Counted from the stretch's first letter, positions 29,224-49,475 are shown. The stretch is DNA of 64,000 bases from Betaproteobacteria bacterium (GCA_031403955.1 JANNGR010000583.1:3865-67864); one strand, 5' to 3'. Notes: generated by a model from the sequence alone, not told the origin. A program made the numbers and translations.

Positions 29224-31248
29224 ATGGGCGCTCTGGCTGACCCGTCGCGGTGGGTTCACCTGGACTGGGTGCTGGTGGCGGTGGGAGCGTGGCTGGTAGT
29301 GGGTGTGGCGGGGGTGTTCGCGCTGCGCCGACTGGTGTTTGTCGCGCGTTTCCTGTTCCCGGCTGGCGGGGTGATCGCGCTCGGATTGTTTGCCGTCGCT
29401 TTGCAGGCGGTTTTCTCGACCCCGCAGACCGCGGTGTTGGCTATTGGTCTGCCGCAGTTGCCGTTTCATCTGCGCCTTGACGCGCTCTCGGCTTTTTTCC
29501 TGATCGTGATCGCCGCCACGGCGGTCGGCGTGTCGGCATTTGCAGCCGGTTATTTTCGCAAGGGGGAGGGCACCCCGCCCGGCTTGTTGTGCCTTGAGTA
29601 CCATGTTTTCCTGGCGGCCATGGTGATGGTGTTGCTGGCCGATGACGCATACGCCTTCATGGTGATGTGGGAGACGATGGCGCTGTCTTCGTTTTTCCTG
29701 GTGATCGCCAACCACCGCATTCCCGAGATCCGCCAGGCTGGTTATCTGTACCTGTTGATCGCCCATATCGGCGCGATCGGCATCCTGCTGTGTTTTGGCG
29801 TGCTGCAGGCCAATACCGGCGACTACACGTTTGCCAATATGCGTTTGCAGCACCTGACGCCATTCTGGGCCTCGGTCGCGTTCCTGCTGGCGCTGTTCGG
29901 TTTTGGCGCCAAGGCCGGCATTCTGCCGCTGCATGTGTGGTTGCCCGAGGCGCATCCGGCGGCGCCGTCGCCGGTATCCGCACTGATGAGCGGCGTGATG
30001 TTGAAGACCGCCATCTACGGCGTGTTGCGGGTCGCGTTTGATCTGTTGCAGATTCAACTCTGGTGGTGGGGTGTGTTGTTGCTGGCATTGGGATTGGCTA
30101 CGGCTATCTACGGTGTGGTGTTCGCCGCCGTGCAGGTCGACATGAAGCGTTTGCTGGCTTATTCGTCGATCGAGAACATCGGCCTGATGTTTGCCGCCAT
30201 CGGACTGGCGCTGATTTTCTGGGCCTACCGCATGCAGGCCATGGCTGCACTGGCGCTCACCGCCGCGCTCTACCATGTGGCGAGCCACGCCTTCTTCAAG
30301 AGCCTGTTGTTTCTGGGCACCGGGGCGGTGTTGCACGCCACCCACGAGCGCAGTCTGGGCAAACTTGGCGGCCTGATCCGCAGCATGCCGTGGGTGGCCT
30401 GGATGACCCTGGTCGGGGCCTTGGCCAGCGCCGGTCTGCCGCCACTCGGCGGTTTTGTCGCCGAATGGTTGCTGTTGCAAAGTTTCCTGTTCACGCCGGG
30501 CCTGCCGAATTCTTTCCTCAACATGCTGATCCCGGCCGTGACGGCGCTGATTGCGATGGTGTCGGCGCTCGCCGGCTACACCATGGTCAAGTTCTTTGGC
30601 GTGATTTTTCTGGGCCAGCCGCGCGAGGAAAGACTGCTGCAAGCGCGGGACGCCGACCGCTGGGAGCGTTTGGGCATGTTGTGGCTGGTGGCTGGATGTA
30701 TCGCGCTGGGGCTGTTGCCAAACCAGTTCATTCAGCTCATCGATCCAGTGACGCAACAACTGGTTGCGGCTGGCCTGGGCGCAACGGCGGCCACCAGTGG
30801 CTGGTTGCTGGTGCCGGTGGACATAGAGCGGGCCAGTTACGGACCGGTGATTTTCCTGCTCGGTGTGGCGGCGTGTTACGCGCTGGCTTACCTGCTGGTG
30901 CGCCGGTTCTACCACGGCCGCGTGCGGCGCTCCGATCCGTGGGACTGCGGTTACCCATGGCAGACGGCGCGCATGCAGGACACGGCCGAGGGTTTCGGCC
31001 AGCCGATTCGTCAGATTTTCGAGCCGTTTTTTCGCATCGAACGGCATCTGCCGAGCCCGTTTGACGCCGCGCCGCGTTACCGCGTGGTGCTCGGCGACCA
31101 TTTTTGGCACTGGCTGTACTTGCCGGTGGCGTCTCTTATCGATCGGACTTCCAGGCTGATCGGCCGGCTCCAGCAGGGGCGCATAGCGTTGTACCTGTTG
31201 TGCAGCTTTGTGACCCTGATCGCCGTGCTGGTGGTGGTAACGCGATGA
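29224..31248 (+). CDS. hyfB: HyfB-like antiporter subunit of an Ehr/hydrogenase-4-like complex
   Basis: 'VMWETM', 'GAKAGILPLHVWLPEAHPAAPSPVSALMSG', 'KRLLAYSSIEN', 'WDCG'. Confidence 0.9.
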   Translation: MGALADPSRWVHLDWVLVAVGAWLVVGVAGVFALRRLVFVARFLFPAGGVIALGLFAVALQAVFSTPQTAVLAIGLPQLPFHLRLDALSAFFLIVIAATAVGVSAFAAGYFRKGEGTPPGLLCLEYHVFLAAMVMVLLADDAYAFMVMWETMALSSFFLVIANHRIPEIRQAGYLYLLIAHIGAIGILLCFGVLQANTGDYTFANMRLQHLTPFWASVAFLLALFGFGAKAGILPLHVWLPEAHPAAPSPVSALMSGVMLKTAIYGVLRVAFDLLQIQLWWWGVLLLALGLATAIYGVVFAAVQVDMKRLLAYSSIENIGLMFAAIGLALIFWAYRMQAMAALALTAALYHVASHAFFKSLLFLGTGAVLHATHERSLGKLGGLIRSMPWVAWMTLVGALASAGLPPLGGFVAEWLLLQSFLFTPGLPNSFLNMLIPAVTALIAMVSALAGYTMVKFFGVIFLGQPREERLLQARDADRWERLGMLWLVAGCIALGLLPNQFIQLIDPVTQQLVAAGLGATAATSGWLLVPVDIERASYGPVIFLLGVAACYALAYLLVRRFYHGRVRRSDPWDCGYPWQTARMQDTAEGFGQPIRQIFEPFFRIERHLPSPFDAAPRYRVVLGDHFWHWLYLPVASLIDRTSRLIGRLQQGRIALYLLCSFVTLIAVLVVVTR

Positions 31249-32192
31249 GTTATTTCGGCTTCATTTCCCAGTTGCTGGAGATCGCCGTCGCGTTGGCGCT
31301 GGCGCCGCTGCTCAGTGGCTGGGTCAACCAGTGGCGCGCCTGGTTGCAGAACAAGTCGGCACCCAGCTTGTTGCAGCCGTATCGCCTGCTGCACAAGTTG
31401 TTTCACAAGGACTCGGTGGTGGCACACCACGCTTCGCCGCTGTTTCGTGTCGCGCCGTACATTATTTTTGGCTGCATGACACTGGCCTGCGCCATTATTC
31501 CGACCCTGTCGACTGACTTGCCCCTGTCAGCCGCTGCCGATGCGATTGCACTGGTTGGTCTGTTTGCGCTGGCGCGGGTGTTCATCTCGCTGGCGGCAAT
31601 GGACATCGGCACATCGTTTGGCAGTCTCGGCGCGCGGCGCGAGATGTTGATCGGGTTTCTCGCCGAACCGGCGCTGTTGATGGTGTTGTTCTCGGCCTCG
31701 CTGATTTCCAAGTCGACTTCGCTGACCACCATCGTGGCCACGCTGGCACACCGCGAGTTCGCCATCTATCCCAGCCTGGCTTTTGCCGGCGTGGCATTTG
31801 CCATGGTGTCGCTGGCCGAAAACGCGCGGGTGCCGGTGGACAACCCGGCCACCCACCTGGAACTGACCATGATCCATGAGGCCTTGATTCTGGAGTATTC
31901 GGGGCGCCATCTGGCGTTGCTCGAATGGGCCGCGAGCCTGAAATTGTTTGCCTATTCATGTATCGGGCTGGCGTTGTTTTTTCCGTGGGGCGTCGCCAAC
32001 GCGCACGCTCCGCTGGCCCTGCTGCTGGCGCTGCCAACCCTGGTATTCAAGCTGGCGGTTGGCGGCGTATTGCTGGCGGTGCTGGAGACACTGAGCGCCA
32101 AGATGCGCATTTTCCGGGTGCCGGAGTTTCTGGCCACCGCCTTCATGCTGGCCGTGATCGGCCTGCTGGTGCGCATCTTGTTGGGGGCATGA
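31245..32192 (+). CDS. hyfC: HyfC/NuoH-like membrane subunit
   Basis: 'PSLLQPY..L.KL..K', 'ENARVPVDNP.THLELTMIHEA..LEYSG', 'AKMRIFRV'. Confidence 0.9.
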   Translation: MSYFGFISQLLEIAVALALAPLLSGWVNQWRAWLQNKSAPSLLQPYRLLHKLFHKDSVVAHHASPLFRVAPYIIFGCMTLACAIIPTLSTDLPLSAAADAIALVGLFALARVFISLAAMDIGTSFGSLGARREMLIGFLAEPALLMVLFSASLISKSTSLTTIVATLAHREFAIYPSLAFAGVAFAMVSLAENARVPVDNPATHLELTMIHEALILEYSGRHLALLEWAASLKLFAYSCIGLALFFPWGVANAHAPLALLLALPTLVFKLAVGGVLLAVLETLSAKMRIFRVPEFLATAFMLAVIGLLVRILLGA

Positions 32193-32193
32193 G

Positions 32194-32853
32194 TTGACGG
32201 ACCTGATCACCCAACTCATCAACCTGTTCGCGGCCATCATCCTGATGCTGGCTTTCGCGATGATTTCGCAGCGGCGCATTCTGTCGCTGATCCATCTCTT
32301 CACGCTGCAGGGTGTCGCCCTGGTGGCCGCCACGGTAACGGTGGGTTATGTCACGCACCAGCCGCATTTGTATCTGTCGGCCGGCCTTACCTTGCTGCTC
32401 AAGGTAATCCTGATTCCGTATTTGCTGCACCGGGTGGTAAACCGGCTCGACGTGCGCTGGGACGTCGAGGCGCTTATCAATATCCCCACCACCATGCTGA
32501 TTGGCATCGTGCTGGTGATTTTTGCGTTCAACCTGGCGTCGCCGATCGCCCATCTGTCATCGACCATCGCACGCGGCACGCTCGGAATCGCGCTGGCCTG
32601 TATCTTGTTGTCGTTCCTGATGATGATCGTTCGCTCCAAGGCGGTGCCGCAGGTGATCGGCTTTCTGTCGATGGAAAACGGCTTGTTTTTTGCCGCCACT
32701 TCGGCTACCTACGGCATGCCGATGGTGGTCGAACTCGGTATCGCGCTCGATGTGCTGGTCGGCATCCTGATCATGGGGGTTTTCCTGTTCCAGATCCGCG
32801 AGCAGTTCGACAGTCTGGATATTCGCCACCTTGAGAAGTTGCGCGAAGAATGA
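32194..32853 (+). CDS. hyfE: HyfE-like membrane subunit
   Basis: 'LKVILIP', 'QVIGFLSMENG', 'PMVVELG..LDV'. Confidence 0.88.
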   Translation: MTDLITQLINLFAAIILMLAFAMISQRRILSLIHLFTLQGVALVAATVTVGYVTHQPHLYLSAGLTLLLKVILIPYLLHRVVNRLDVRWDVEALINIPTTMLIGIVLVIFAFNLASPIAHLSSTIARGTLGIALACILLSFLMMIVRSKAVPQVIGFLSMENGLFFAATSATYGMPMVVELGIALDVLVGILIMGVFLFQIREQFDSLDIRHLEKLREE

Positions 32854-34310
32854 CCCTGCAAGCGCTGCATTTTGTTTTCGGCATTCCGCTGCTGGGCAGC
32901 ATCGTGCTGGCGTTTACCGGGCAGCGCGACGTGGCGCGCGACATCAACGCCGCATTCAGCCTGGGCACCTTCATCGCCGCCTGCGTTTTGACGGCGCAAA
33001 TTGTCAGCGACGGGCCGTTGTTGGCCCTCGATGACCAGTTCTACATCGATCCGCTGAACGTCTTCCTGGTTACCCTGACCGCGTTTGTCGGCTTGACCAC
33101 GGCGTTGTTCTCGCGTCCCTACATGCTGGTGGAGCGCGACCGCGGCAAGATGACGCCGCCGCGCATGCGGCTGTACCACAGCATGTACCAGTTGTTCAGC
33201 TTCACGATGCTGGTGGCGCTGATGACCAACAACATGGGCATCCTGTGGGTGGCGATGGAGGCGGCCACGCTCACCACCGTGTTGCTGGTCAGCGTGTACC
33301 GCACCGCCGCCAGTCTGGAGGCGGCCTGGAAATATTTCATACTTTGCGGAGTCGGCATCGCGCAGGCACTGTTCGGAACGGTGCTGTTGTACATGGCAGC
33401 CGAAAAAGTGTTGGGCGCTGAAGGCGGCGCCTTGTTGTGGACCAACCTGGACGCGGTCAAGTCGCAACTCGACCCCGACATAATTACGCTGGCGTTTGCT
33501 TTCCTGTTCATTGGCTACGGCACCAAGGTCGGCTTGGTGCCGTTGCATAACTGGTTGCCCGACGCCCACGCCGAGGGTCCAACACCGGTGTCGGCGGTAC
33601 TTTCCGGTTTGTTGCTCAATGTGGCGCTGTACGCGCTGCTGCGCTGCAAGGTACTCACCGACGGCGCGCTGCACAGCCCGCTGGCAAGCCAGCTGATGTT
33701 GGGATTTGGCTTGCTCTCGGTGCTGGTGGCGGCATTTTTCCTGTCGCGCCAGAAGGACGTGAAACGCATGTTTGCTTATTCGTCGATAGAGCATATGGGG
33801 CTGATCACGTTTGCGTTTGGCCTGGGCGGACCGATTGCCAACTTTGCCGGGCTACTGCACATGACGGTGCACTCGTTGATCAAGTCCGCTATTTTCTTCG
33901 CCGTCGGCCATGCGACGCAAAAAGCCGGCACACAGAATATGGACGACATACGAGGCTTGATCACGGTCAGCCCGACGGTCGGCTGGGGCCTGATGCTGGG
34001 CTCGCTGGCGATCCTGGGCATGCCGCCATTCGGCGTGTTTGCGAGCGAATTCCTGATCCTGACCACCGCCATGCGCGAGCAGCCCTGGGCCACACCCTTG
34101 TTGCTGCTGGCGCTCGGGGTGGCTTTCGCGGCCGTTTTGAGCCGGGTTCTGCCGATGGTATTTGGCCAGACCACGTTGAAGCCGCTGAAGCATTCGCCGG
34201 CGCTGCTGCCAGTGTTCGTTCACCTGGCGCTGGGCCTGATGCTGGGCCTGTACATACCGCCCTACCTGGATGCGTGGTTCCGGCAGGCGGCTCGCATGAT
34301 CGGAGGTTGA
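32850..34310 (+). CDS. hyfF: HyfF-like antiporter subunit
   Basis: 'WVAMEAATL', 'AAWKY', 'GYGTKVGLVPLHNWLPDAH', 'KRMFAYSSIEH'. Confidence 0.9.
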   Translation: MTLQALHFVFGIPLLGSIVLAFTGQRDVARDINAAFSLGTFIAACVLTAQIVSDGPLLALDDQFYIDPLNVFLVTLTAFVGLTTALFSRPYMLVERDRGKMTPPRMRLYHSMYQLFSFTMLVALMTNNMGILWVAMEAATLTTVLLVSVYRTAASLEAAWKYFILCGVGIAQALFGTVLLYMAAEKVLGAEGGALLWTNLDAVKSQLDPDIITLAFAFLFIGYGTKVGLVPLHNWLPDAHAEGPTPVSAVLSGLLLNVALYALLRCKVLTDGALHSPLASQLMLGFGLLSVLVAAFFLSRQKDVKRMFAYSSIEHMGLITFAFGLGGPIANFAGLLHMTVHSLIKSAIFFAVGHATQKAGTQNMDDIRGLITVSPTVGWGLMLGSLAILGMPPFGVFASEFLILTTAMREQPWATPLLLLALGVAFAAVLSRVLPMVFGQTTLKPLKHSPALLPVFVHLALGLMLGLYIPPYLDAWFRQAARMIGG

Positions 34311-34314
34311 TGGC

Positions 34315-35862
34315 ATGTCGATTCCTGGTATGACGCTGGGTCTGCGCCGCCTGTCGGCGCCCTTGCCGGTCTGGCATGCTGGCGTGGGTACAGATGAGTG
34401 GCAACTCGCGGCGCGTGTGGTGCGTGAAGGTGGCGGCCGCTTGGTATCGGTGTGGGGGTCGCACGCCAACGGGCTGAGCGCCCACGCGGCCTATGCGGTC
34501 CAGGATGGCCTGGTCTGGCTGCAACTGGCGCTCGAGGATAGCCATCCCCACTACCCTGACCTGGCGCCGGTTTTTCCAGCGGCCGCCCGGATGCAGCGTG
34601 CCGCGGCGGACCTGCTCGGCATTCACGCCGAGGGGGCGGCGGACGTGCGTCCGTGGCTCAACCATGGTGCCTGGAGCGCCGACTATTTGCCTTTGCGGCA
34701 GTCTGCGTCCGGCGACGAAGTTCCGGCTGGCGCCAGCGTTGCCAACTACCCTTTTGTGCGGGTCGAGGGTGAAGGCGTGCATGAAATACCGGTCGGTCCG
34801 GTACATGCCGGAATCATCGAACCCGGCCATTTCCGTTTCTCGGTGGTAGGCGAAAAGCTGCTGCGCCTGGAGCAGCGGCTGGGCTACACCCACAAGGGCA
34901 TTGCGCGGCGTTTCACCCAACTGGCGCCACTGCAGGCGCACCGGCTCGCGGCGCGCATGTCGGGCGACTCCACGGTGGCTGGCGCCTGGGCCTATTGCAT
35001 GGCGCTGGAGTCGGCTGCGGCTTGTGAATTGCCGCCGCGCGCGGCCTGGTTGCGCGCCTTGATGCTGGAGCGCGAACGGGTCGCCAACCACCTCGGCGAT
35101 CTGGGGGCTTTGGGCAACGACGCGGCGCTCGCGTTCGGTCTGGCCCAGTTCTCGCGCTTGCGAGAAGACTGGCTGCGCCTGTCTGGCCAGGTGTTCGGCC
35201 ACCGGCTGATGATGGACAACCTGCTGCCGGGTGGCGTGGCACAGGATGTAAACCAGGCCGCTGTCGACCAGCTTTGCCGGCAATGCGACGCCATTGAGCG
35301 CGAGGTGCGCGTGTTGCGTGTGGTGTACGACGAACATGCCGGATTGCAGGACCGGTTTCTTGGTACCGGCCAGGTATTGCCGGCGCTGGCGGCCCAACTT
35401 GGCCTGGCGGGACTGGCAGGCCGCGCCAGCGGGCAATCCTGGGACCTGCGCAGCGACCATGCCTGGCCACCTTATGACGACCTGGACGTGAAAATTGCCA
35501 CCCACCGCAATGGCGACGTGGCCGCACGGGTGATGGTGCGTTTTGATGAGCTGTTTGAGTCACTACGCCTGATTCGGACGATTGCGCGGCGGTTGCCCGG
35601 CGGTGCGCTGCGAAGCGCGCTCGACCTGCCGGCTGAGCCGTCGCTTGGTGCCGGTTGGATAGAAGGCTGGCGCGGCGAGATTCTGGTGGCGCTGGAGCTC
35701 GATGGGTCGGCCAACAGTGGCCGCATTTTGGGTTGCCACTGCCATGACCCCTCGTGGCACAACTGGCCGGTGCTGGAACATGCGGTGATAGGCAACATCG
35801 TTCCGGACTTCCCGTTGATCAATAAGTCCTTTAACCTGAGTTACTCGGGGCATGATTTATGA
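34315..35862 (+). CDS. HyfG/HycE-like large subunit (NuoC+NuoD-like) lacking NiFe ligands (EhrL type)
   Basis: 'PVGPVHAGIIEPGHFRF', 'LGYTHKG', 'ERERVANH'; L1 reads 'RMSGDS' and L2 reads 'NKSFNLSYSGHDL', with no Cys pairs. Confidence 0.9.
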   Translation: MSIPGMTLGLRRLSAPLPVWHAGVGTDEWQLAARVVREGGGRLVSVWGSHANGLSAHAAYAVQDGLVWLQLALEDSHPHYPDLAPVFPAAARMQRAAADLLGIHAEGAADVRPWLNHGAWSADYLPLRQSASGDEVPAGASVANYPFVRVEGEGVHEIPVGPVHAGIIEPGHFRFSVVGEKLLRLEQRLGYTHKGIARRFTQLAPLQAHRLAARMSGDSTVAGAWAYCMALESAAACELPPRAAWLRALMLERERVANHLGDLGALGNDAALAFGLAQFSRLREDWLRLSGQVFGHRLMMDNLLPGGVAQDVNQAAVDQLCRQCDAIEREVRVLRVVYDEHAGLQDRFLGTGQVLPALAAQLGLAGLAGRASGQSWDLRSDHAWPPYDDLDVKIATHRNGDVAARVMVRFDELFESLRLIRTIARRLPGGALRSALDLPAEPSLGAGWIEGWRGEILVALELDGSANSGRILGCHCHDPSWHNWPVLEHAVIGNIVPDFPLINKSFNLSYSGHDL

Positions 35863-36392
35863 CCTGGAACATCATCAAGCAGATCGCTCGCAACGGCATT
35901 CGCACCGAGGCCCCACCGCACGGCGCCGCTGGTTTGCAGGCCGAGGTGTTGCATATCCACCAGGACCTGCTGGACATACTGGGCCAGGCGCTGACGATCC
36001 GCCAAGTCGATGCCGGTTCGTGTAATGGATGCGAGCTGGAAATCAACGCGCTGGGCAACCCGTACTACAACATCGAGGGCTTGGGCATACAGTTCGTTGC
36101 CAGCCCGCGCCATGCCGACATGTTGCTGGTGACCGGGCCGGTGTCGCGCAACATGGAGCTGGCCTTGCAGCGCACCTATGACGCCACACCCGATCCCAAG
36201 CTGGTGGTGGCGGTTGGCGATTGTGCCGCGGATGGCGGCATATTCGGCGAGAGTTATGCCAGTTGCGGCCGGGTGTCCAACGTCATACCGGTGCATCTGA
36301 CGGTGCCGGGTTGCCCGCCGCCGCCGCTCGAAATCTTGCGCGGCATCCTGACGGCGGTGCGTCGCGTGCGTGGCCAGGACGGCCATGTCTGA
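35859..36392 (+). CDS. NuoB/HyfI-like [4Fe-4S] small subunit (EhrS type)
   Basis: 'GSCNGCE', 'SPRHAD', 'VGDC', 'PGCPP'. Confidence 0.92.
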   Translation: MTWNIIKQIARNGIRTEAPPHGAAGLQAEVLHIHQDLLDILGQALTIRQVDAGSCNGCELEINALGNPYYNIEGLGIQFVASPRHADMLLVTGPVSRNMELALQRTYDATPDPKLVVAVGDCAADGGIFGESYASCGRVSNVIPVHLTVPGCPPPPLEILRGILTAVRRVRGQDGHV

Positions 36393-37563
36393 ACGCGCCA
36401 CGCGCATGGGAGACAAGACATTCAAGTGCATCGTGGTGCTGGTCTGCGTGATCAACCTGGCGGCCATCGGTATTGGACTGGGTGGCAGTGGCGCCGTATC
36501 CGTCGTCTGGCTGGCGGTATTGGGCGCCGCCGGGTGCGTGGGCACCCTGGCCCTGGTGCTGGCGGTGCGCGGTGGCCGGCGCCAGCTTGAAGCCGCGACT
36601 GCGTTACTGCCGCTGCATGAACTGGAACTGGCGCGCGCGCAGGCACGCGCCGCCGAATTGCGTTTGCGCGAGGTGATCGACGTTATTCCCGCGGGTCTGG
36701 CGATCTACGACAACCAGGACCGGCTGGTCAGCTACAACCAGGAGGTGTCGCGGCAGTACCCGTACCGCGGCGAAGGCAACGTGATGGGTGAGTCCTATGA
36801 AGGCTTGATGCGCCGCGCGCTTGCCACCGGAAGTATCCCCGACGCGGTGGGACGCGAGGAAGAATGGCTGGCGCTGCGCATGGCCGGACGTGGTGCGCTG
36901 AATGGGCCGTTGCTGCGGCATACCGACGATGGCCACTGGGTGCACTTCTATGAATCGCGTACCCCGTCGGGTTATCTGGTCATGACGCGGCTGGACATCA
37001 CGCCGATGGTTGAGAAAGGACTGGCGCTGGAACGCGCCAACGAGCAATTGCTGCGCCTGTCAACGACCGACGGACTGACTGGAATAACGAACCGGCGCCG
37101 GTTTGACCAGACCTTGCAAAACGAATGGCAACGATGTGCGCGCAACCAGTCCTGGTTGTCGTTGTTGATGATCGACATCGACCATTTCAAGCGTTACAAC
37201 GAGCACTATGGCCATTTGACCGGCGACGAGTGCCTGCGCCAGGTGGCGCGGATCCTGGGGTTGTGTATCAAGCGCTCGGGAGAACTGGTGGCGCGTTACG
37301 CCGGCCAGAAATTCGCCGTTTTGTTGCCTGGCGCCGACGCGGCAGAGGCCAAGTGCCTGGCACAACGTTGCAACCACGAGATGCTGAATGCCAGAATTCC
37401 GCACGCCGACTCGCCGGTGTCGCCCTGGCTGAGTGTGAGTATCGGTGTGGCGACCATGGTGGCCGCGCCCGGCTTGTTGCCAGCCACTTTGCTGGAGCAT
37501 GTCGAGCAGGCGACGGCCAAGGCAAAAAGCGCCGGGCGGGCACGCTTCGAGGTTTTCGACTGA
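36385..37563 (+). CDS. Membrane-anchored PAS-fold plus degenerate GGDEF protein
   Basis: Two TM segments, PAS-like segment, 'DGLTGITNRR', 'DIDHFK'; the active-site motif reads AGQKF. Confidence 0.85.
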   Translation: MSERATRMGDKTFKCIVVLVCVINLAAIGIGLGGSGAVSVVWLAVLGAAGCVGTLALVLAVRGGRRQLEAATALLPLHELELARAQARAAELRLREVIDVIPAGLAIYDNQDRLVSYNQEVSRQYPYRGEGNVMGESYEGLMRRALATGSIPDAVGREEEWLALRMAGRGALNGPLLRHTDDGHWVHFYESRTPSGYLVMTRLDITPMVEKGLALERANEQLLRLSTTDGLTGITNRRRFDQTLQNEWQRCARNQSWLSLLMIDIDHFKRYNEHYGHLTGDECLRQVARILGLCIKRSGELVARYAGQKFAVLLPGADAAEAKCLAQRCNHEMLNARIPHADSPVSPWLSVSIGVATMVAAPGLLPATLLEHVEQATAKAKSAGRARFEVFD

Positions 37564-37684: not shown

Positions 37685-37970
37685 CCTGTCTGAGGAGCAC
37701 CTCGAGCAGGTCCGCAAGATTGTCAAGCTGCACCTGCATGACGCAGAGGTGTTTGCCTTTGGATCGCGGGTCACAGGCAAGGCCAGCAAGTTTTCGGATC
37801 TGGACCTGATGGTCAAAACCAACGGCAGCCTGCCATGGAGGAAGCTAGCCGACTTGCGAGAATCGTTCGAAGCGTCCGACCTGCCGATCACGGTTGATGT
37901 GCTGGACTGGGGCAACTGCTCGGACGTCTTTCGCGGAATCGTCGCGCCCGAGCTGGTTCGGGTTGTCTGA
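37677..37970 (+). CDS. Minimal nucleotidyltransferase (MNT antitoxin-type)
   Basis: 'VFAFGSRVTG.A..FSDLDL', 'SDLPITVDVLDW'. Confidence 0.88.
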   Translation: MIDLSEEHLEQVRKIVKLHLHDAEVFAFGSRVTGKASKFSDLDLMVKTNGSLPWRKLADLRESFEASDLPITVDVLDWGNCSDVFRGIVAPELVRVV

Positions 37971-38091: not shown

Positions 38092-40230
38092 TCAACGCAC
38101 CCGCATACCGGGCTGTGCCCCAATGGAAGGCTCCAGCACATGGATGCCGGGTTGGGCCTTTTCGTCAGCATGGCTGGCCGCCAGCACCATGCCTTCGCTG
38201 ACGCCAAACTTCATCTTGCGCGGCGCCAGGTTGGCGACCATGACCGTCAACTTACCGACCAAATTTTCGGGCTTGTAGGCGCCGGCGATACCGCTGAAAA
38301 CGTTTCTGGTTTTTCCCTCGCCGGTGTCGAGGGTCAGGCGCAGCAGTTTGGTGCTGCCTTCGACGGCCTCGCAGTTGACTATTTTGGCGATGCGCAGGTC
38401 GATCTTCGCGAAGTCGTCGATGGTGATGGTGGGGGCGATGGCTTCGCCGCCGGGTACCAGATTCTCAGTCTCTGCTTGCGCCGGGGCTTCAAAAAGGGAT
38501 TCGAGTTGCTTGGGGTCGACGCGTTGCATCAGGTGCCGGTAGTGCCCGATTTTGTGACCGGGTGGAAAACTCTTCGCGGCGTCCGGGAAGAGCAGCGGAG
38601 CAACACCAAGAAACCGTTCCGCTTGTTCGGCCAAAGACGGCAGGATTGGCTTCAGATAAATCGTCAGCAACCGGAAACACTCGATCACGGCAGAGCAAAC
38701 CATGTGGAGCTTTGCGCGAGCCTCGGGCTGTTTCGCCAGCTCCCAAGGCTTGAACGCGTCATACATGGTGTTGACAAGATCCGCTAGCTGCATTACCTTG
38801 CGCACGGCCTTGGCAAACTCGCGCGCTTCATAAAGCGCTTCTATCTCCTTGCTCTGGGCGCGAACAAAAGCCGTTACATCCGCCGGAGCACCCGGGCCGG
38901 CATGTTTTGCGGCGTCGAAGACCATCGACTCGGTCATCCCGGAGGCGCTCAGAAATTGAACGCCACCCATGCCCACTTCACCATTGAATATCCTGCCAAT
39001 AAAGCTGGCCGCGCGGCTCGCGATATTCACATACTTGCCAATCAGGTCGCTGTTGACGCGGGCCATGAAATCTTCCGGGCTGAATTCGATGTCTTCATTG
39101 CGTGACGACAACTTCGCCGCGATGTAGTAACGCAACCACTCCGGGTTCATGCCCAGACTCAGGTACTTGAGCGGGTCCAGTCCGGTGCCGCGGCTCTTGC
39201 TCATCTTCTCGCTATCGACTGTCAAAAATCCGTGCACGAAAATCGCGCTGGGTGTCTTGCGGCCGCTGAAATGCAGCATGGCGGGCCAGAACAGGGTGTG
39301 AAAAGTGATGATGTCCTTGCCGATGAAGTGGACCTGCTCTACCGCCGGGTCGGCCATGAAGGCGTCGAACTGAGCCGCGCCTTGGGCCGCTCCGCTGATC
39401 TTGACGAAGCGGTTTTTCAGCGCCGCGAGGTAACCAATCGGCGCGTCCAGCCAGACATAAAAATACTTGCCCGGCGCGTCGGGGATTTGTATGCCGAAGT
39501 AGGGTGCGTCGCGGCTAATGTCCCAGTCGCCCAGGTCGCGTTTGCCGGCTTCATCGGGTGTTAGCCATTCCTTGATCTTGTTGTAGACCTCGCTTTGCAA
39601 GCGCCCGCTGGTGCGGGTCCACTGCTCCAGAAACGCCACGCAGCGTGGGTCGGACAGGCTGAAGAAATAATGTTCCGAGTCACGCAGCACCGGCGTCACG
39701 CCGCTCAGCGCGGAATATGGGTTTTTCAGTTCGGTCGGGCTGTAGACGGCGCCACACACCTCGCAGTTATCACCGTACTGGTCCTTGGCGCCGCACTTGG
39801 GGCATTCGCCCTTGATGAAGCGGTCAGGCAGGAACATGTTTTTTTGCGGGTCGAAGAACTGTTTAATCACGCGCGAACTGATCAGACCGGCGCTTTTCAG
39901 GTCGAGGTAAATCTTCTGCGCCAGTTCATGGTTCTCTGGCGCATCGGTCGAATGCCAATTGTCGAAACTGATGTGAAAGCCATCCAGATACGGCTTGCGG
40001 CCGGCCGCGATGTCGGCCACAAACTGCTGCGGCGTCTTGCCGGCCTTTTCGGCGGCGATCATGATGGGTGCGCCGTGCGCGTCGTCGGCGCAGACAAAAT
40101 GCACTTCATGGCCCAGCATCCTCTGGAACCGCACCCAGATATCAGCCTGGATGTATTCCATGATGTGGCCGATGTGGAAGTTGCCGTTGGCGTACGGCAA
40201 GGCGGTGGTGACGAAGAGTTGGCGTGGCAT
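38092..40230 (-). CDS. metG: Methionine--tRNA ligase with C-terminal tRNA-binding domain
   Basis: 'HIGH', Zn knuckle 'CPKC...CEVC', 'KMSKS', C-terminal 'FAKIDLRIA'. Confidence 0.97.
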
Positions 40231-41686: not shown

Positions 41687-42778
41687 ATGGCAGTTTCAGA
41701 ACAAGGTTTGATGGATGCGCTCAAGTCTGTCGTCGATCCAAATACCGGACGCGACTTTGTGTCAACGCGCGCCATCAGAAACCTGAGCGTGCTGGAGGGC
41801 GACGTGGCTTTTGACGTCGAGTTGGGATACCCGGCCAAAAGCCAGATTGCGGGCTTTCGCAAAGCCCTGGTGGCTGCCGCCAAATCGGTTGCCGGGGTCG
41901 AGAATGTCTCGGTCAACGTCAGCATGAAAATCATCCCGCACTCGGTGCAACGCGGCGTGCAGTTGATGCCCAACATCAAGAATATCGTTGCCGTTGCGTC
42001 CGGCAAGGGCGGCGTGGGTAAAAGCACGATGGCGGTGAACCTGGCCTTGGCGCTGGCGGCGGAAGGCGCGAGTGTGGGGGTGCTGGACGCCGACATCTAT
42101 GGCCCCAGTGTTCCGATGATGCTGGGCATCAGCGGCAAGCCCGACAGCGCCGACGGCAAAAGCATGGAGCCAATGGAGAACTACGGTGTGCAGGTAATGT
42201 CGATCGGGTTCCTGGTGGCGCAGGACGAGGCCATGATCTGGCGCGGCCCGATGGCGACGCAGGCGCTGGAGCAGTTGCTGCGCCAGACCAACTGGAAGGA
42301 CCTGGACTACCTGATTGTCGACATGCCGCCCGGTACCGGAGACATACAGCTGACCATGAGCCAGCGGGTGCCGATGACCGGCGCCATCATCGTCACGACG
42401 CCGCAGGACATAGCCTTGCTGGACGTGAAAAAAGGCATCAAGATGTTCGAGAAGGTGGGCGTGCCGATTCTGGGCATCGTGGAAAACATGGCGGTGCATG
42501 TTTGCAGCCAGTGTGGCCACCAGGAACATATTTTTGGCGCGGATGGCGGCAAGAAAATGGCGGCCGAGTACGGTATGGATTACCTGGGCGCCTTGCCGCT
42601 CGACATGCAAATCCGCCTTCAGGCCGATAACGGCCATCCGACGGTGGTCGCCGACCCGGATGGCGAAGTGGCGGCCATCTACAAGGCCGTAGCGCGGCAG
42701 ATCGCGGTGTCGATAGCCGCCAAGAACAAGGACTTTTCGTCGAAGTTCCCGTCCATCAAGATTTCGAAGGAAACTTGA
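41687..42778 (+). CDS. apbC: Fe-S cluster carrier ApbC/Mrp
   Basis: 'ASGKGGVGKST', 'DADIYGPS', 'WRGPM', 'DMPPGTGD', 'CSQC'. Confidence 0.95.
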   Translation: MAVSEQGLMDALKSVVDPNTGRDFVSTRAIRNLSVLEGDVAFDVELGYPAKSQIAGFRKALVAAAKSVAGVENVSVNVSMKIIPHSVQRGVQLMPNIKNIVAVASGKGGVGKSTMAVNLALALAAEGASVGVLDADIYGPSVPMMLGISGKPDSADGKSMEPMENYGVQVMSIGFLVAQDEAMIWRGPMATQALEQLLRQTNWKDLDYLIVDMPPGTGDIQLTMSQRVPMTGAIIVTTPQDIALLDVKKGIKMFEKVGVPILGIVENMAVHVCSQCGHQEHIFGADGGKKMAAEYGMDYLGALPLDMQIRLQADNGHPTVVADPDGEVAAIYKAVARQIAVSIAAKNKDFSSKFPSIKISKET

Positions 42779-44701: not shown

Positions 44702-44762
44702 AAATCCTTCCTGAGCCATTCCAGCCGTAGCGCGATTGTTGCGCGTCGGCGGCCTAAAAGAT

Positions 44763-46574
44763 ATGAATCGAACCAGCCAATCCCGTGAAATCCCTGCCGT
44801 AGTGGTGGCTACCGTTGAGGAACTGCGCGAGCGCATCCGCCGCAAGCGCCAGCTAAAGGGTCGGCAGGCGGACCAGGTGTCGCTTGGCGAAGTACGTTCC
44901 TTGATCGGCGAGCCGGCGATCGGCGGGCATCGGCGTGACTTGTTGATTGAACACTTGCACAAACTCAACGATGCCTACCGCTGCCTGCATGACCGCCATC
45001 TGGTTGCCCTGTCCAAAGAGATGAATATCCCGATGGCGGAGGTTTATGAGGTGGCCACCTTCTACCACCATTTCGACGTTGTCAAGGGTGATGCCCAGGC
45101 GCCGGGCCTGACGGTGCGGGTGTGTGATGGCCTGAGTTGTGAACTGGCCGGGTCAAGAGATTTGATGGAGCGCCTGCCCGCCTTGTTGGGCAATCTGGAT
45201 GTGCGCGTGATGCCGGCACCCTGTGTGGGACGCTGCGAGCAGGCGCCGGTAGCCGTGGTGCACCAATACCCGGTGTTGCATGCCACGCCCGAGCGGGTGG
45301 CGGCGAGTGTGCGGGGCGGGATGACCCAACACCCGGCAGCGCTCGGGTCGACCGATTTTGACGCAGCGTCGAAGGCCGAAAAGAGCGTGTCACCGCCACC
45401 GCAAGACGTTCAGGTTTCGCCCGGCTACACCGGATATGACAACTACCGGGCGAATGGCGGTTATGCACTGGCGGCAGCGCTAGTAAATGGTGAAGAAGAA
45501 GCAGAGCGTATCCTGAAGGCAATGGAAGATTCCGGTCTGCGTGGGCTGGGCGGCGCGGGCTTCCCGGCTGGGCGCAAGTGGCGCATTGTGAGCGAGCAAG
45601 CCGCGCCGCGTGTCATGGCCGTGAACATTGACGAAGGGGAGCCCGGTACCTTCAAGGACAGAACTTACCTGGAGCGGGACCCGCACCGTTTTCTGGAAGG
45701 CATGCTGGTTGCGGCGCAGGTGGCGGGCACTGACGTCTGCTACCTGTACCTGCGTGACGAATACCATGGCTGCCGGGCGATATTGGAGGCCGAACTGGCC
45801 CTGCTGCGGGCCAACCCGCCGTGCCCGTTGCCCGCGATTGAGTTGCGCCGCGGCGCCGGTGCCTATATCTGCGGCGAAGAGTCGGCCATGATTGAGAGTA
45901 TCGAAGGCAAACGCGGCGAGCCACGCATGCGCCCGCCCTACATTGCCCAAGTCGGTTTGTTTGGCCGCCCCACGCTCGAACACAACTTGGAGACCCTGTA
46001 CTGGGTGCGCGATATTGTGGAAAAAGGCGCCGGCTGGTTCAGCGGCTTTGGCCGCCACGGCCGCAAAGGCTTGCGGTCCTTCAGTGTCAGCGGTCGTGTC
46101 AGTCATCCCGGTGTGAAGCTGGCGCCCGCGGGTATTACGGTGCAGGAGTTGATCGACGAATACTGCGGCGGCATGCTGGATGGCCATACGCTTTACGCCT
46201 ATCTGCCGGGTGGTGCGTCGGGCGGCATTTTGCCGGCCAGCCTGAGCAATATAGCGCTGGATTTCGACACCTTGCAAGCCTATGGCTGCTTCATTGGGTC
46301 CGCCGCCGTGATCGTGCTCAGCCACAAAGACCGGGCGCGTGATGCCGCGCTGAACATGATGCGGTTTTTTGAACATGAGAGTTGCGGCCAGTGCACGCCC
46401 TGCCGTGTGGGAACCGCGAAGGCGGTTCGGTTGATGCAAGCGCCGGTTTGGGACAACGACACGCTGGAAGACTTGAACCTGGTGATGGCAGATGCATCGA
46501 TTTGTGGCCTGGGGCAGGCTGCGCCCAATCCGGTGCGCAGCATCCAGCAGTATTTCGCGCAGGAGATCACTTGA
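44763..46574 (+). CDS. Formate dehydrogenase beta subunit, NuoE+NuoF fusion (2Fe-2S, FMN, 4Fe-4S)
   Basis: 'VATFYHHF', 'CDGLSC...CVGRC', 'GLRGLGGAGFP', 'YICGEESA', 'CGQCTPCR...C'. Confidence 0.92.
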   Translation: MNRTSQSREIPAVVVATVEELRERIRRKRQLKGRQADQVSLGEVRSLIGEPAIGGHRRDLLIEHLHKLNDAYRCLHDRHLVALSKEMNIPMAEVYEVATFYHHFDVVKGDAQAPGLTVRVCDGLSCELAGSRDLMERLPALLGNLDVRVMPAPCVGRCEQAPVAVVHQYPVLHATPERVAASVRGGMTQHPAALGSTDFDAASKAEKSVSPPPQDVQVSPGYTGYDNYRANGGYALAAALVNGEEEAERILKAMEDSGLRGLGGAGFPAGRKWRIVSEQAAPRVMAVNIDEGEPGTFKDRTYLERDPHRFLEGMLVAAQVAGTDVCYLYLRDEYHGCRAILEAELALLRANPPCPLPAIELRRGAGAYICGEESAMIESIEGKRGEPRMRPPYIAQVGLFGRPTLEHNLETLYWVRDIVEKGAGWFSGFGRHGRKGLRSFSVSGRVSHPGVKLAPAGITVQELIDEYCGGMLDGHTLYAYLPGGASGGILPASLSNIALDFDTLQAYGCFIGSAAVIVLSHKDRARDAALNMMRFFEHESCGQCTPCRVGTAKAVRLMQAPVWDNDTLEDLNLVMADASICGLGQAAPNPVRSIQQYFAQEIT

Positions 46575-49475
46575 ATGAATGAACCTGCCAGACTGGCTGA
46601 AGTAACGCTGCCGACAGTCGAGTTCCAGCTCGACAAGCAGACCATACATGCGTTTGAGGGTGAAACCATCCTGAAGGCCGCCCGGCGCCATGGGGTGGAG
46701 ATTCCCACTCTGTGTTACCAGGACGGTTACCGCGCTGACGGCAACTGTCGTGCCTGCGTCGTCGAGATAAAGGGCGAGCGCATATTGGCGCCGAGCTGCT
46801 GCCGCACCGCGACCGCGGGCATGCAGGTGCAGGCCAGCAGCGAACGCGCCGTGAAGAGCCAGCAGATGGTGCTGGAGATGTTGTTGTCGGACATGCCAGA
46901 CGTAGGCTACAAGTGGAACGATGGCGCTGCTGACGCACCAGGCGATGCCGGCCAGCACGGTGAACTCAGTCAATGGGCCGCGCGCATGCAGGTCACGGTG
47001 CGCCCGGCACTCAAGGTCTTGCGGCGCGAACAACCCCAAGCCGATCTGTCGCACCCGGCGATGGCGGTCAATCTGGACGCCTGCATCCAGTGCAAGCGCT
47101 GCGTGCGTGCCTGCCGTGAAGAGCAGGTAAACGACGTAATTGGTTACGCCATGCGCGGCTCGCACAGCGAAATCGTGTTCGACCTGGGCGACCCGATGGG
47201 CGACAGCAGTTGCGTGGCGTGTGGTGAATGTGTGCAGGCCTGTCCCACCGGCGCCCTAATGCCCAAAACCCAGATCGGCTCGCAGGTGGTGGACAAAAAG
47301 GTCGACTCGGTATGCCCGTTTTGCGGCGTTGGTTGCCTGCTGACCTACAACGTCAAAGACAACCGAATCATCAGTGTCGATGGGCGCGACGGACCTGCCA
47401 ACCACAAACGTTTGTGCGTCAAGGGCCGTTATGGTTTTGACTATGCGCACCACGATCAGCGCCTGACGCAACCGCTGATTCGCATCGCGGGCGTTCCCAA
47501 GGACCCGGCCGTGGCGCCCAATCCGGCCGATTGGCGCGCGGTGTTTCGTGAGGCCTCGTGGGAAGAGGCGCTCGATCTGACGGCCGGCAAGCTGAAGGGC
47601 CTGCGCGACAGACACGGCAAGAAGTCTTTGGCGGGGTTCGGTTCGGCCAAGGGCAGCAACGAGGAAGCCTACCTGTTCCAGAAACTGGTGCGTACCGGCT
47701 TTGGGTCGAACAACGTGGACCACTGCACCCGCTTGTGCCATGCCTCCAGCGTGGCCGCACTGCTCGAAGGCGTGGGTTCTGGCGCGGTCAGCAACCAGGT
47801 CAACGACGTTGAACATGCCGGGCTGATACTGGTGATTGGCTCCAACCCTACGTCCAACCACCCGGTGGCCGCGACCTTCATGAAGAACGCCGCCAAAAAG
47901 GGGGTGCGGATCGTGCTGGCCGACCCGCGTCTGACCGACCTTGGCAAATACGCCTGGCGCACGCTGCAGTTCAAGGCCGATACCGATGTGGCGATGCTAA
48001 ACGCGCTGATCCATGCCGTGATCGACGAAGGGCTGGTGGACGAGGAATTTGTTCGTACCCGGGCCAGCAATTTTGAGGCCCTGAAAGACAACGTCAAGGG
48101 CTACAGCCCGGAAGCCATGGCGCCGATTTGCGGCATCGACGCGCGCACGCTGCGCGAAGTGGCGCGGGAGTTCGCGCGACCCGCAGGGTCAGTGCCCGGC
48201 GCCGTCAAGGGCTCAATGATCTTGTGGGGCATGGGCATCAGCCAGCATGTGCACGGCACCGACAATGCGCGCTGCCTGATCGCGTTGGCCACGGTTACCG
48301 GCCAGATCGGCAAACCAGGCTCCGGGCTGCACCCGTTGCGGGGTCAAAACAATGTGCAGGGCGCGAGCGACGCGGGCCTGATTCCGATGATGTTCCCCAA
48401 CTACCAGCGGGTCACCGACAGCGGCGCGCACCATTGGTTCGAGAAATTCTGGAACACCTCCCTGGACGACCAGCCGGGTTACACGGTGGTCGAAATCATG
48501 CACAAGGCGCTGGCACCGGACAGCGACCCGCACAAGGTGCGCGGCATGTACATCATGGGTGAAAACCCGGCCATGAGCGACCCCGATCTGAACCACGCGC
48601 GCCACGCGCTGGCCTCGCTGGAGCACCTGGTGGTGCAGGACATTTTCATGACCGAAACCGCCTGGCTGGCCGACGTGGTGCTGCCGGCCACGGCCTGGCC
48701 GGAAAAGACCGGTACCGTGAGTAATACCGATCGCATGGTGCAGTTGGGGCTGCAGGCGATCGACCCACCACGGGATGCCAAACCCGATTTGTGGATCATC
48801 CAGCAAATCGCAAAACGAATCGGCCTGCCTTGGAACTACCAGGGCGAACACTGTGGTGTCGCCGAGGTTTATGAAGAAATGCGCCAGGCCATGCACACCG
48901 CTATCGCGGGCATCACCTGGGAGCGGCTGCAGCGTGAATCGAGCGTGACTTACCCGTGTCTGAGCGCCGATGATCCGGGTGCGCCCACGGTGTTCATCGA
49001 CAGTTTCCCGACCGAAGATGGACGTGTGCAACTGGTGCCGGCCGACATAATCCCCGCCGATGAGCGGCCCGATGCCGAGTTTCCTTTTGTGCTGATAACC
49101 GGGCGTCAGCTGGAACACTGGCATACCGGCAGCATGTCGCGCCGTGCCAGCGTGCTCGACGCGATCGAGCCGATGGCCACCGCTTCATTGTGTGGTGCCG
49201 ACCTGCTGAGCCTGGGGCTGGAGCCAGGCGACGTTATCACGGTGCAGTCGCGCCGCGGTCAAGTGGCTATCCATGTGCGGCGCGACGACGGCACGCCGCC
49301 TGGCGCGGTGTTTATCCCGTTTGCGTATTACGAAGCGGCCGCCAACCTGATGACCAATGCCGCGCTCGACCCGGTCGGCAAGATTCCCGAATTCAAATAT
49401 TGCGCGGTAGCGATTCGTCGCGGTGGCGCATTGCAGAGCGTGGCGGGCTACGGCACGGGTGCCGAGGGGCCGTGA
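46575..49475 (+). CDS. Formate dehydrogenase alpha subunit (Mo/W-bisPGD, Cys ligand)
   Basis: N-terminal 2Fe-2S, two ferredoxin motifs, 'CPFCGVGC', 'NNVDHCTRLCH', 'LRGQNNVQG', 'GKIPEFKYCAV'. Confidence 0.95.
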   Translation: MNEPARLAEVTLPTVEFQLDKQTIHAFEGETILKAARRHGVEIPTLCYQDGYRADGNCRACVVEIKGERILAPSCCRTATAGMQVQASSERAVKSQQMVLEMLLSDMPDVGYKWNDGAADAPGDAGQHGELSQWAARMQVTVRPALKVLRREQPQADLSHPAMAVNLDACIQCKRCVRACREEQVNDVIGYAMRGSHSEIVFDLGDPMGDSSCVACGECVQACPTGALMPKTQIGSQVVDKKVDSVCPFCGVGCLLTYNVKDNRIISVDGRDGPANHKRLCVKGRYGFDYAHHDQRLTQPLIRIAGVPKDPAVAPNPADWRAVFREASWEEALDLTAGKLKGLRDRHGKKSLAGFGSAKGSNEEAYLFQKLVRTGFGSNNVDHCTRLCHASSVAALLEGVGSGAVSNQVNDVEHAGLILVIGSNPTSNHPVAATFMKNAAKKGVRIVLADPRLTDLGKYAWRTLQFKADTDVAMLNALIHAVIDEGLVDEEFVRTRASNFEALKDNVKGYSPEAMAPICGIDARTLREVAREFARPAGSVPGAVKGSMILWGMGISQHVHGTDNARCLIALATVTGQIGKPGSGLHPLRGQNNVQGASDAGLIPMMFPNYQRVTDSGAHHWFEKFWNTSLDDQPGYTVVEIMHKALAPDSDPHKVRGMYIMGENPAMSDPDLNHARHALASLEHLVVQDIFMTETAWLADVVLPATAWPEKTGTVSNTDRMVQLGLQAIDPPRDAKPDLWIIQQIAKRIGLPWNYQGEHCGVAEVYEEMRQAMHTAIAGITWERLQRESSVTYPCLSADDPGAPTVFIDSFPTEDGRVQLVPADIIPADERPDAEFPFVLITGRQLEHWHTGSMSRRASVLDAIEPMATASLCGADLLSLGLEPGDVITVQSRRGQVAIHVRRDDGTPPGAVFIPFAYYEAAANLMTNAALDPVGKIPEFKYCAVAIRRGGALQSVAGYGTGAEGP

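Follow-up and report, generated by a model that had tools for sequence, protein, structure and literature searches.

We analysed a window of 64,000 nucleotides (nt), JANNGR010000583.1:3865-67864, from the genome assembly of a freshwater, Rhodoferax-like Betaproteobacteria bacterium (GCA_031403955.1). The window contains, at 29224-36392 on the plus strand, an operon for a complex of the Ehr/Hyq type. It consists of six intact, translationally coupled genes in the order hyfB-C-E-F-G-I, and the junctions between them are, in order, a 4-nt overlap, a 1-nt gap, a 4-nt overlap, a 4-nt gap and a 4-nt overlap. A preliminary description of the window had reported that these hyf-like genes are tightly coupled, and the coordinates bear this out. 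The six products (lengths in amino acids, aa) are listed with the profile matches on which their assignment is based.

29224-31248, plus strand: EhrA/HyqB/HyfB-like antiporter-like subunit, 674 aa; Pfam Proton_antipo_M, E=8e-53; NCBIfam 'hydrogenase 4 subunit B', 930 bits; orthologues 61-78% identical
31245-32192, plus strand: EhrB/HyqC/HyfC-HycD-NuoH-like coupling subunit, 315 aa; Pfam NADHdh, E=1e-32; orthologues 67-88% identical
32194-32853, plus strand: EhrC/HyqE/HyfE-like membrane subunit, 219 aa; NCBIfam 'hydrogenase 4 membrane subunit' (HyfE), E=1e-26, which is below the cut-off
32850-34310, plus strand: EhrD/HyqF/HyfF-like antiporter-like subunit, 486 aa; Pfam Proton_antipo_M, E=8e-53; NCBIfam 'hydrogenase 4 subunit F', 906 bits
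34315-35862, plus strand: EhrL/HyqG large subunit, a fusion of a NuoC-like and a NuoD/HycE-like part, 515 aa; Pfam Complex1_30kDa and Complex1_49kDa
35859-36392, plus strand: EhrS/HyqI, NuoB/HycG-like small subunit, 177 aa; Pfam Oxidored_q6, E=8e-31

The former nickel-iron site, the cluster and the membrane arm

In a phmmer search of the PDB, the top match of EhrL was Escherichia coli HycE (7z0s_E, E=2e-53), followed by the complex I subunit Nqo4 (8e-28) and MbhL. The preliminary description had pointed to RMSGDS in place of the RxCGxC of group 4 hydrogenases, and to an altered C terminus in place of DPCxxC. In the alignment to HycE, R-V-C241-G-I-C244 pairs with R-M-S216-G-D-S219, and D-P-C531-Y-S-C534 pairs with N-L-S509-Y-S-G512; both pairings had high posterior probability in phmmer, and the MAFFT columns were identical. 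Because the two alignments agree, we conclude that all four Ni-Fe ligands are gone, as had been described, and that S216, S219, S509 and G512 occupy their positions. Moreover, EhrL ends three residues past the last ligand position, while HycE and HyfG run 35 residues further in an extension that is removed by a protease at maturation. The two replaced segments lie as follows.

34960-34971, plus strand: S216-G217-D218-S219, which replaces the first Ni-Fe motif, CGxC; aligned to HycE C241-G-I-C244
35821-35859, plus strand: EhrL C terminus N503-K-S-F-N-L-S509-Y-S-G512-H-D-L515, which replaces DPCxxC and the cleaved extension; aligned to HycE ...SLDPC531YSC534, with the stop codon immediately after

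From representatives at 50% identity, we derived the replacement signature of the clade without Ni-Fe cysteines, i.e. [S/A]-G-D-[S/T/E/N] together with a C-terminal N-K-S-F-N-x-S-Y-[S/A]-G-x-D-L. The EhrL of the window matches this signature with SGDS and NKSFNLSYSGHDL. The ligand columns of most representatives read SSSG, STSG, SESG, SNSG, ATSG and similar; thirteen sequences in the alignment, among them HycE and HyfG as references, had CCCC. The nearest true hydrogenases carry RxCGxC and NKSFELCY[A/S]C.

We determined conservation among 30 diverse family members that are 31-58% identical to the EhrL of the window. G217, D218, N503, K504, S505, Y510, G512 and D514 as well as the loop residues H164, P170 and G171 were invariant, and S216, S509, E169, H172, H259 and D269 were conserved in at least 90% of the members; no cysteine was conserved anywhere in the large subunit. 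The former Ni-Fe site is occupied by a strictly conserved polar pocket made up of S216, G217, D218, S219, N503, K504, S505, S509, Y510, G512 and D514. Four cysteines of EhrL, C228, C324, C474 and C476, recur in Burkholderiales orthologues (11/12, 11/12, 12/12 and 9/12, respectively) and are not kept across the wider clade; C476 is aligned to C510 of HycE, which is not a ligand. Conceivably, these cysteines could form a lineage-specific metal or disulfide site.

EhrS matched MbhJ (2.5e-35) and HycG (5e-32) in the PDB. Its four cysteines, C55, C58, C122 and C152, correspond to the ligands for one proximal/N2-type [4Fe-4S] cluster in the same CxxC...C...C pattern as in MbhJ and HycG, in agreement with the earlier observation that the small subunit keeps four cysteines. 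All four were present in 13/13 small subunits of the window's clade (the window and 12 orthologues) and also in HycG and HyfI. The EhrS of the window has no ferredoxin-like extension.

The residues for ion translocation and coupling are also kept in the membrane subunits. The channel residues E150, K230, K261, H355 and E414 of EhrA correspond to E144, K234, K265, H348 and E407 of E. coli NuoM, and EhrD keeps E137, K226, H315, H341 and E400, with N257 corresponding to N263 of HyfF; the NuoM and other reference numbers are those of the literature and were confirmed on the E. coli sequences. EhrB has lost none of the charged residues shared invariantly by NuoH, HycD and HyfC; its R132, E141, D199, E206, E217, K269 and R288 correspond to NuoH R148, E157, D213, E220, E228, K274 and R293. 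EhrC has two invariant membrane glutamates, E161 and E180. A phmmer search with EhrC against the PDB gave no match; with a profile of ten homologues, its C-terminal half showed a weak, marginal resemblance to MrpC and MbhG (E=0.04 to 0.1). The identity of the membrane subunits reaches 80-88% among orthologues from other genera, and we therefore conclude that the operon is under strong selection. A pseudogene or decaying remnant is excluded by the six intact frames, the 54-88% identity to orthologues from other genera and the invariant signatures.

Maturation genes, phylogeny and genomic context

The assembly comprises 5.7 Mb in 630 contigs and is 92.8% complete and fragmented, which is a caveat on all genome-wide absences. 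According to the preliminary description, the window holds neither hyp genes nor an endopeptidase gene nor a HycF/NuoI-like gene; this is correct, and the genome-wide search for hyp genes that it had proposed likewise gave no convincing homologue. Profiles for HypD and for the [NiFe] large subunit (NiFeSe_Hases) had no match in the whole assembly, and neither had E. coli HypA, HypB, HypC, HypD, HycI, HycH, HycA and FocB in tblastn. HypE and HypF each gave one weak partial tblastn match (E about 4e-4 to 8e-4), which we did not accept as orthologues. HycF/HyfH matched only nuoI, located beside nuoLMN, and, weakly, one sequence on another contig. Similarly, a hidden ferredoxin subunit was found neither in the operon and its flanks nor in the neighbourhoods of its relatives. 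The assembly contains only two Complex1_49kDa genes, canonical nuoD and the gene for EhrL. Nitrogenase (searched as nifD) and DabA were not found in the genome.

In a sample of 200 genomes (genera) of the same bacterial family, an orthologue of the operon is present in 15 genomes, i.e. 14 other genera and the window's own, with large subunits that are 55-73% identical; the single other genome of the window's genus lacks the operon. The same six genes were found on every sufficiently long contig, several of them between scpA and metG as in the window. HypD is missing from 9/15 of the operon-bearing genomes, including one that is closed (G010) and three that are 99-100% complete (G106, G117 and G147), supporting that the complex is independent of the universal [NiFe] maturation pathway. 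None of the features that define a group 4 [NiFe] hydrogenase, i.e. RxCGxC/DPCxxC, Hyp proteins with an endopeptidase and a cleavable tail, and a ferredoxin-like subunit with two [4Fe-4S] clusters, was found.

We built a quick maximum-likelihood tree with support from the Shimodaira-Hasegawa-like approximate likelihood-ratio test (SH-aLRT) and without bootstrap. The sequences without Ni-Fe cysteines formed a clade of 73 rows (SH-aLRT 99), and the EhrL of the window was placed in this clade, confirming its earlier assignment to the Ehr type. More precisely, it falls into a subclade of 15 rows (support 94) within a clade of 18 rows that is starred at 96. The sister of the clade consists of CCCC group 4 hydrogenases that share the NKSF motif, with HycE, HyfG and NuoCD further out. 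One planctomycetotal sequence from the 'Ca. Wujingus californicus' cluster (P0177) has CCCC (RICGVC ... NKSFELCYSC) and is nested in the cysteine-less clade, which reflects either an ancestral state that was retained or an artefact of the placement. In total, we are confident that the operon is of Ehr/Hyq identity and does not encode a Hyp-matured [NiFe] hydrogenase. With moderate confidence, we conclude that it encodes an intact complex of this type, a self-contained six-subunit relative of hydrogenase-4 and of the complex I core.

The same bacterial family contains a second, paralogous six-gene clade that is 33-37% identical and also lacks the full set of Ni-Fe ligands (L025, 1690-8980 and 10299-17209; L035-L038; L112). 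Its small subunit has a fused N-terminal ferredoxin-type CxxCxxCxxxCP motif that is absent from the window type. The proposal in the preliminary description that the complex has no input module holds for the window's clade. In one genome (G052), the two types are neighbours on opposite strands and adjoin metG, and at the Nitrospirota locus L112 two units follow each other in tandem.

Among 5.8 billion proteins searched, at least 8000 were close homologues, all with E <= 1e-20; they come from Polaromonas, Hydrogenophaga, Rhodoferax, Caldimonas, Accumulibacter and many metagenomes. Scanning one genome per species yielded at least 598 loci, in Burkholderiales, Gallionella, Thiobacillus, Thiomonas, Paraburkholderia, Burkholderia, Rhodanobacter, Steroidobacter, Acidithiobacillus, Methylobacter, Granulicella, Nitrospirota, Bradyrhizobium, Hyphomicrobiaceae and Mariprofundus. 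The six-gene unit was complete in 70/94 loci spanning the Beta-, Gamma-, Alpha- and Zetaproteobacteria, Acidobacteria and Nitrospirota, and the other loci were interrupted by contig ends. Of the complex I relatives that have no assigned reaction, Ehr/Hyq complexes are some of the most widespread. As had been anticipated, automated annotation is misleading: close relatives appear under public names such as 'Ni,Fe-hydrogenase III large subunit' or 'NADH-quinone oxidoreductase subunit C', and even 'HypE' is used, for a related alphaproteobacterial cluster. The operon should not be named hydrogenase-4, formate hydrogenlyase or NADH dehydrogenase, and its presence should not be taken as evidence for H2 metabolism.

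Clustering of the open reading frames (ORFs) that flank the 94 loci revealed no recurrent accessory or partner gene. The clusters comprised response regulators of a generic kind in 15 loci, synteny with metG in 11 betaproteobacterial loci and, in 9 loci, a spermidine-synthase-like methyltransferase. This methyltransferase (~250 aa) lies directly beside the operon, upstream on the same strand in L046, L028, L056, L062, L078, L089 and L025 and downstream in L069; the loci concerned are from Burkholderiales, Paraburkholderia/Burkholderia and a metagenome-assembled genome of the Acidobacteriaceae, and the gene is absent from the window.

In the window, the operon is preceded by three unrelated genes, gpsA, scpA and a gene for a BamE-like lipoprotein. 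It is followed by genes for a PAS-GGDEF protein, a nucleotidyltransferase, metG, a patatin, apbC, an MFS transporter and a two-subunit NAD-type formate dehydrogenase with fdhD. Scans for promoters, terminators and sigma-54 sites around the operon gave nothing above chance level. The first downstream gene is the following.

36370-37563, plus strand: gene for a membrane PAS-GGDEF protein; Pfam PAS_7 and GGDEF; the ORF adjoins ehrS at its 3' end or overlaps with it

This gene is probably co-transcribed with the operon here; it is outside the conserved six-gene unit because it is missing downstream in most relatives. Its product has two transmembrane segments, and in the translation R-Y-A-G-Q-K-F stands at the position expected for the diguanylate cyclase signature GG[D/E]EF. 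Judged by this replacement, the protein probably has no catalytic activity and would act as a sensor or receptor instead of a cyclase. In L058, L098 and L037, too, the operon has a GGDEF or response-regulator gene as neighbour, but these families are generic. A small ORF with a nucleotidyltransferase domain (NTP_transf_2/Polbeta, MNT-like) lies at about 37700-37970 on the plus strand, between the GGDEF gene and metG. metG (38092-40230, minus strand) and the gene for the Fe-S carrier ApbC (NUBPL/Mrp family; 41687-42778, plus strand) are close to the operon; metG adjoins it in 11 betaproteobacterial loci, a few of which also have apbC nearby. Because the pairing of metG and apbC is common in proteobacteria, this proximity is probably plain synteny.

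Possible functions of the complex

The preliminary description had called the substrate of Ehr complexes unresolved, in line with the literature, in which their function is given as unknown (PMC6349859, PMC10284858, PMC7894505, PMC3569383). The copy in the window narrows the options: it comes without Hyp proteins, nitrogenase, a conserved partner gene or a conserved cysteine in the large subunit, and it keeps the polar pocket, the Fe-S site and the pump residues.

Our tentative reading is that the complex is possibly a carrier:quinone pump, i.e. a redox-coupled ion pump built around a single N2-like cluster. As suggested by the lack of a HycF/NuoI subunit, electrons would pass directly between this cluster and a soluble one-electron carrier, perhaps ferredoxin, flavodoxin or a different Fe-S protein, docked on the exposed EhrS/EhrL face in the place of HycF or NuoI. 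The second redox partner of the cluster would be a membrane quinone or some other small acceptor at the junction of EhrL, EhrS and EhrB, and the resulting charge change would pass via EhrB and EhrC to EhrA and EhrD. Possibly, the complex could also run in reverse, with the proton-motive force pushing electrons from quinol onto a low-potential carrier.

Several points weigh against such a pump. The donor, the acceptor and the direction are inferred for every member of the family, and no gene for a carrier partner was found near the operon in the 94 loci. Moreover, the quinone ligands of complex I are not conserved: Tyr87 and His38 of Nqo4 (Thermus thermophilus numbering), which we take to be the quinone-ligating residues, correspond to G217 and I168 in EhrL. 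Quinone binding, if any, would therefore involve other residues. Finally, mutant data for the related Hyq complex have been interpreted as H2 chemistry (PMC3357923).

We rank the alternatives in the order redox-independent antiporter, Hyq-type H2 chemistry, coupling to formate dehydrogenase, and CO2/bicarbonate chemistry. The antiporter is unlikely, although it leads this order. In this case, the complex would be a Mrp-like cation/proton antiporter or a device for pH or ion homeostasis, with EhrL and EhrS as a cap that is only structural or regulatory. The lack of both an input module and a catalytic metal site, the complete channel residues in both antiporter-like subunits and the weak resemblance of EhrC to MrpC fit this explanation; however, the four cluster ligands are invariant, the former Ni-Fe pocket has remained invariant over deep divergence, and no MrpE/F/G-like genes were seen in the unit. 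Moreover, all known NuoH-like subunits belong to redox-coupled members of the superfamily. Hyq-type chemistry, which we regard as improbable, would make the complex an 'endo-hydrogenase', i.e. an H2:quinone oxidoreductase core with a non-canonical, cysteine-poor site that oxidises cytoplasmic H2 or evolves H2 when the quinone pool is over-reduced. The Hyq complex of Azorhizobium caulinodans (hyqRBCEFGI, AZC_4360-4355; Ng et al. 2009, PMC2650096; Sprecher et al. 2012, PMC3357923) shares the order and subunits of hyqBCEFGI and the HyqI pattern Cys55, Cys58 and Cys152 with the window, and its HyqG also lacks both CxxC motifs (PMC3357923). Deletion of hyq reduced diazotrophic growth; it also abolished ~80% of the H2 produced under microaerobic conditions, and did so even when nifK was mutated (PMC2650096; PMC3357923). 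The mutants were interpreted in terms of a bidirectional H2:quinone oxidoreductase activity, and the authors concluded that H2 from nitrogenase is recycled and that H2 is evolved at high rates at <1 uM O2 (PMC2650096, PMC3357923); they considered a Ni-Fe site 'uncertain, if not unlikely' (PMC3357923). Against this explanation, the evidence for Hyq is purely genetic and the enzyme was never purified, the window genome contains neither hyp genes nor another hydrogenase nor a nitrogenase as a source of H2, and the operon-bearing relatives without HypD point the same way. In addition, the conserved cysteines of HyqG are replaced in the window, and no cysteine is conserved across the clade. Thus, because the Hyq mutant data have been read as H2:quinone activity, the absence of H2 chemistry is contested for the family; for the window genome, it is well supported. 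Genomes with the operon show a modest enrichment of nifD (3/15 versus 9/186, p=0.049), but a link to nitrogenase was rejected, nifD being absent from the window genome and from 12/15 of the operon-bearing genomes.

Still less probable is a supercomplex in which Ehr is the membrane arm of a formate dehydrogenase, with the NAD-type enzyme encoded 8.4 kb downstream (44736-49475) feeding electrons from formate to the EhrS cluster. A complex of Ehr with a formate dehydrogenase that has NuoE/F-like subunits was proposed earlier (PMC6349859), Ehr subunits of Geobacter show a higher abundance on formate (PMC7894505), and the formate dehydrogenase of the window has a NuoE-NuoF fusion subunit. Orthologues of it are found in 12/15 operon-bearing genomes, in two of them (G106 and G052) on the same contig ~18-19 kb away. 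However, genomes with and without the operon do not differ significantly in this respect (12/15 versus 103/186, Fisher p=0.10), the closed genome G010 has the operon without such an enzyme, no formate dehydrogenase lies within 9-10 kb of the operon at any other locus examined, and the five intervening genes (nucleotidyltransferase, metG, patatin, apbC and MFS transporter) are unrelated. We therefore rejected this link as weak, not significant and contradicted by the closed genome. Very improbable, and last in order, is that ion flow drives non-redox chemistry in the rebuilt polar pocket, e.g. vectorial CO2 hydration or bicarbonate handling as in DAB or CupA systems. Many carriers of the operon are chemolithoautotrophs (Gallionella, Thiobacillus, Acidithiobacillus, Nitrospirota and Mariprofundus), and in Accumulibacter (L041, 12332-21563; also L042 and L043) the operon is directly followed on the same strand by DabB-DabA (PF10070, energy-coupled CO2 hydration) and three more antiporter-like Proton_antipo_M genes, an arrangement unique among the 94 loci. 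This adjacency is confined to Accumulibacter (1/94 loci with DabA), and the link was rejected; the genome of the window lacks DabA, and a non-redox role leaves the conserved [4Fe-4S] ligands unexplained.

Apart from these alternatives, a speculative and rather unlikely idea concerns the pocket itself. The former Ni-Fe cavity might have been rebuilt as a conserved oxygen-ligand pocket (S216, D218, S219, S509, N503, K504, Y510 and D514 with the hydrogenase-type E169/H172) about one electron-transfer step from the [4Fe-4S] cluster. This pocket could be an undescribed catalytic or cation-binding centre, making Ehr/Hyq complexes either cofactor-poor, Hyp-independent H2-active enzymes or quinol:low-potential-carrier reductases driven by the proton-motive force. 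If true, such a reductase would address the supply of reduced ferredoxin in aerobic lithotrophs and diazotrophs. Biochemistry of one member would settle the hydrogenase claim for Hyq and show the capacity of a minimal, one-cluster relative of complex I.

Comparison with known systems

Of the systems compared, complex I (NuoB, CD, H, K and L/M/N) shares with the complex in the window one N2-type cluster beside a NuoD-like subunit on a NuoH-like subunit as well as the Glu/Lys/His chains of the antiporter-like subunits, and Nqo4 Asp139 corresponds to the conserved D269. By contrast, NuoB has a tandem CC where the small subunit of the window has CxxC, and NuoA, NuoI, a separate NuoJ and the N-module have no counterpart in the unit. 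A separate canonical nuo operon is present in the genome, on contigs C87 and C247.

For E. coli hydrogenase-4 and formate hydrogenlyase (HyfA-J; HycB-G, PDB 7Z0S), HyfB and HyfF are each 43% identical over the core to their window counterparts. EhrL also keeps the hydrogenase-type beta1-beta2 loop PxH..EPGHFR, including E169 (MAFFT). However, the Ni-Fe cysteines, the C-terminal extension, HycI and Hyp are missing from the window complex, and so are the ferredoxin subunits HycF/HyfH and HycB/HyfA, HyfD and the FdhF partner.

According to the Ehr literature (Coppi 2005; Marreiros et al. 2013; via PMC7894505, PMC3569383, PMC6349859), Ehr was first named for Geobacter sulfurreducens GSU0739-0745. 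Compared by description only, this complex has a NuoL-like EhrA, a HyfE-like EhrC, an EhrL without Ni-Fe cysteines and EhrS, as in the window, but it has seven locus tags where the window has six genes. Presumably, the Geobacter cluster includes a second EhrA. 'Ehr' is a loose umbrella that also covers members with all four cysteines (PMC3569383).

The preliminary description had identified the complex correctly as Ehr but left out its nearest studied relative, Hyq of A. caulinodans. We consider Hyq the closest because the Hyq-like alphaproteobacterial representatives P0130 and P0134 sit in the clade starred at 96 that holds the window's subclade. The large subunits of P0130 and P0134 are 48% and 45% identical to that of the window, respectively, and share SGD[ST] and NKSFNxSYSGxDL with it. 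The six structural subunits correspond, equivalents of HyfA, HyfD and HyfH are found in neither system, and both have a fused NuoC-NuoD-like large subunit of ~504-515 aa. HyqG is 504 aa long (PMC3357923), and its positions were read via P0130 (Falsiroseomonas cluster; 504 aa, with Cys491/Cys497 fitting the published description) and P0134. In the alignment to these two proxies, the three conserved HyqG cysteines (258, 491 and 497; PMC3357923) correspond to G267, I502 and L508 in the window. The two systems also differ in their setting: hyqR leads the hyq operon while the window has no hyqR and instead scpA and the BamE-like lipoprotein gene upstream; hyq belongs to the nif regulon while sigma-54-like matches in the window were at chance level (the NifA box was not searched for); and the host of Hyq is a diazotroph while the genome of the window has no nitrogenase, hyp or hup genes. 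Altogether, the class has been known since 2005 as Ehr and since 2009 as Hyq, and the operon in the window is an ordinary member of this widespread, already described family, one of thousands of copies; the residual interest lies in the chemistry of the family rather than in this copy.

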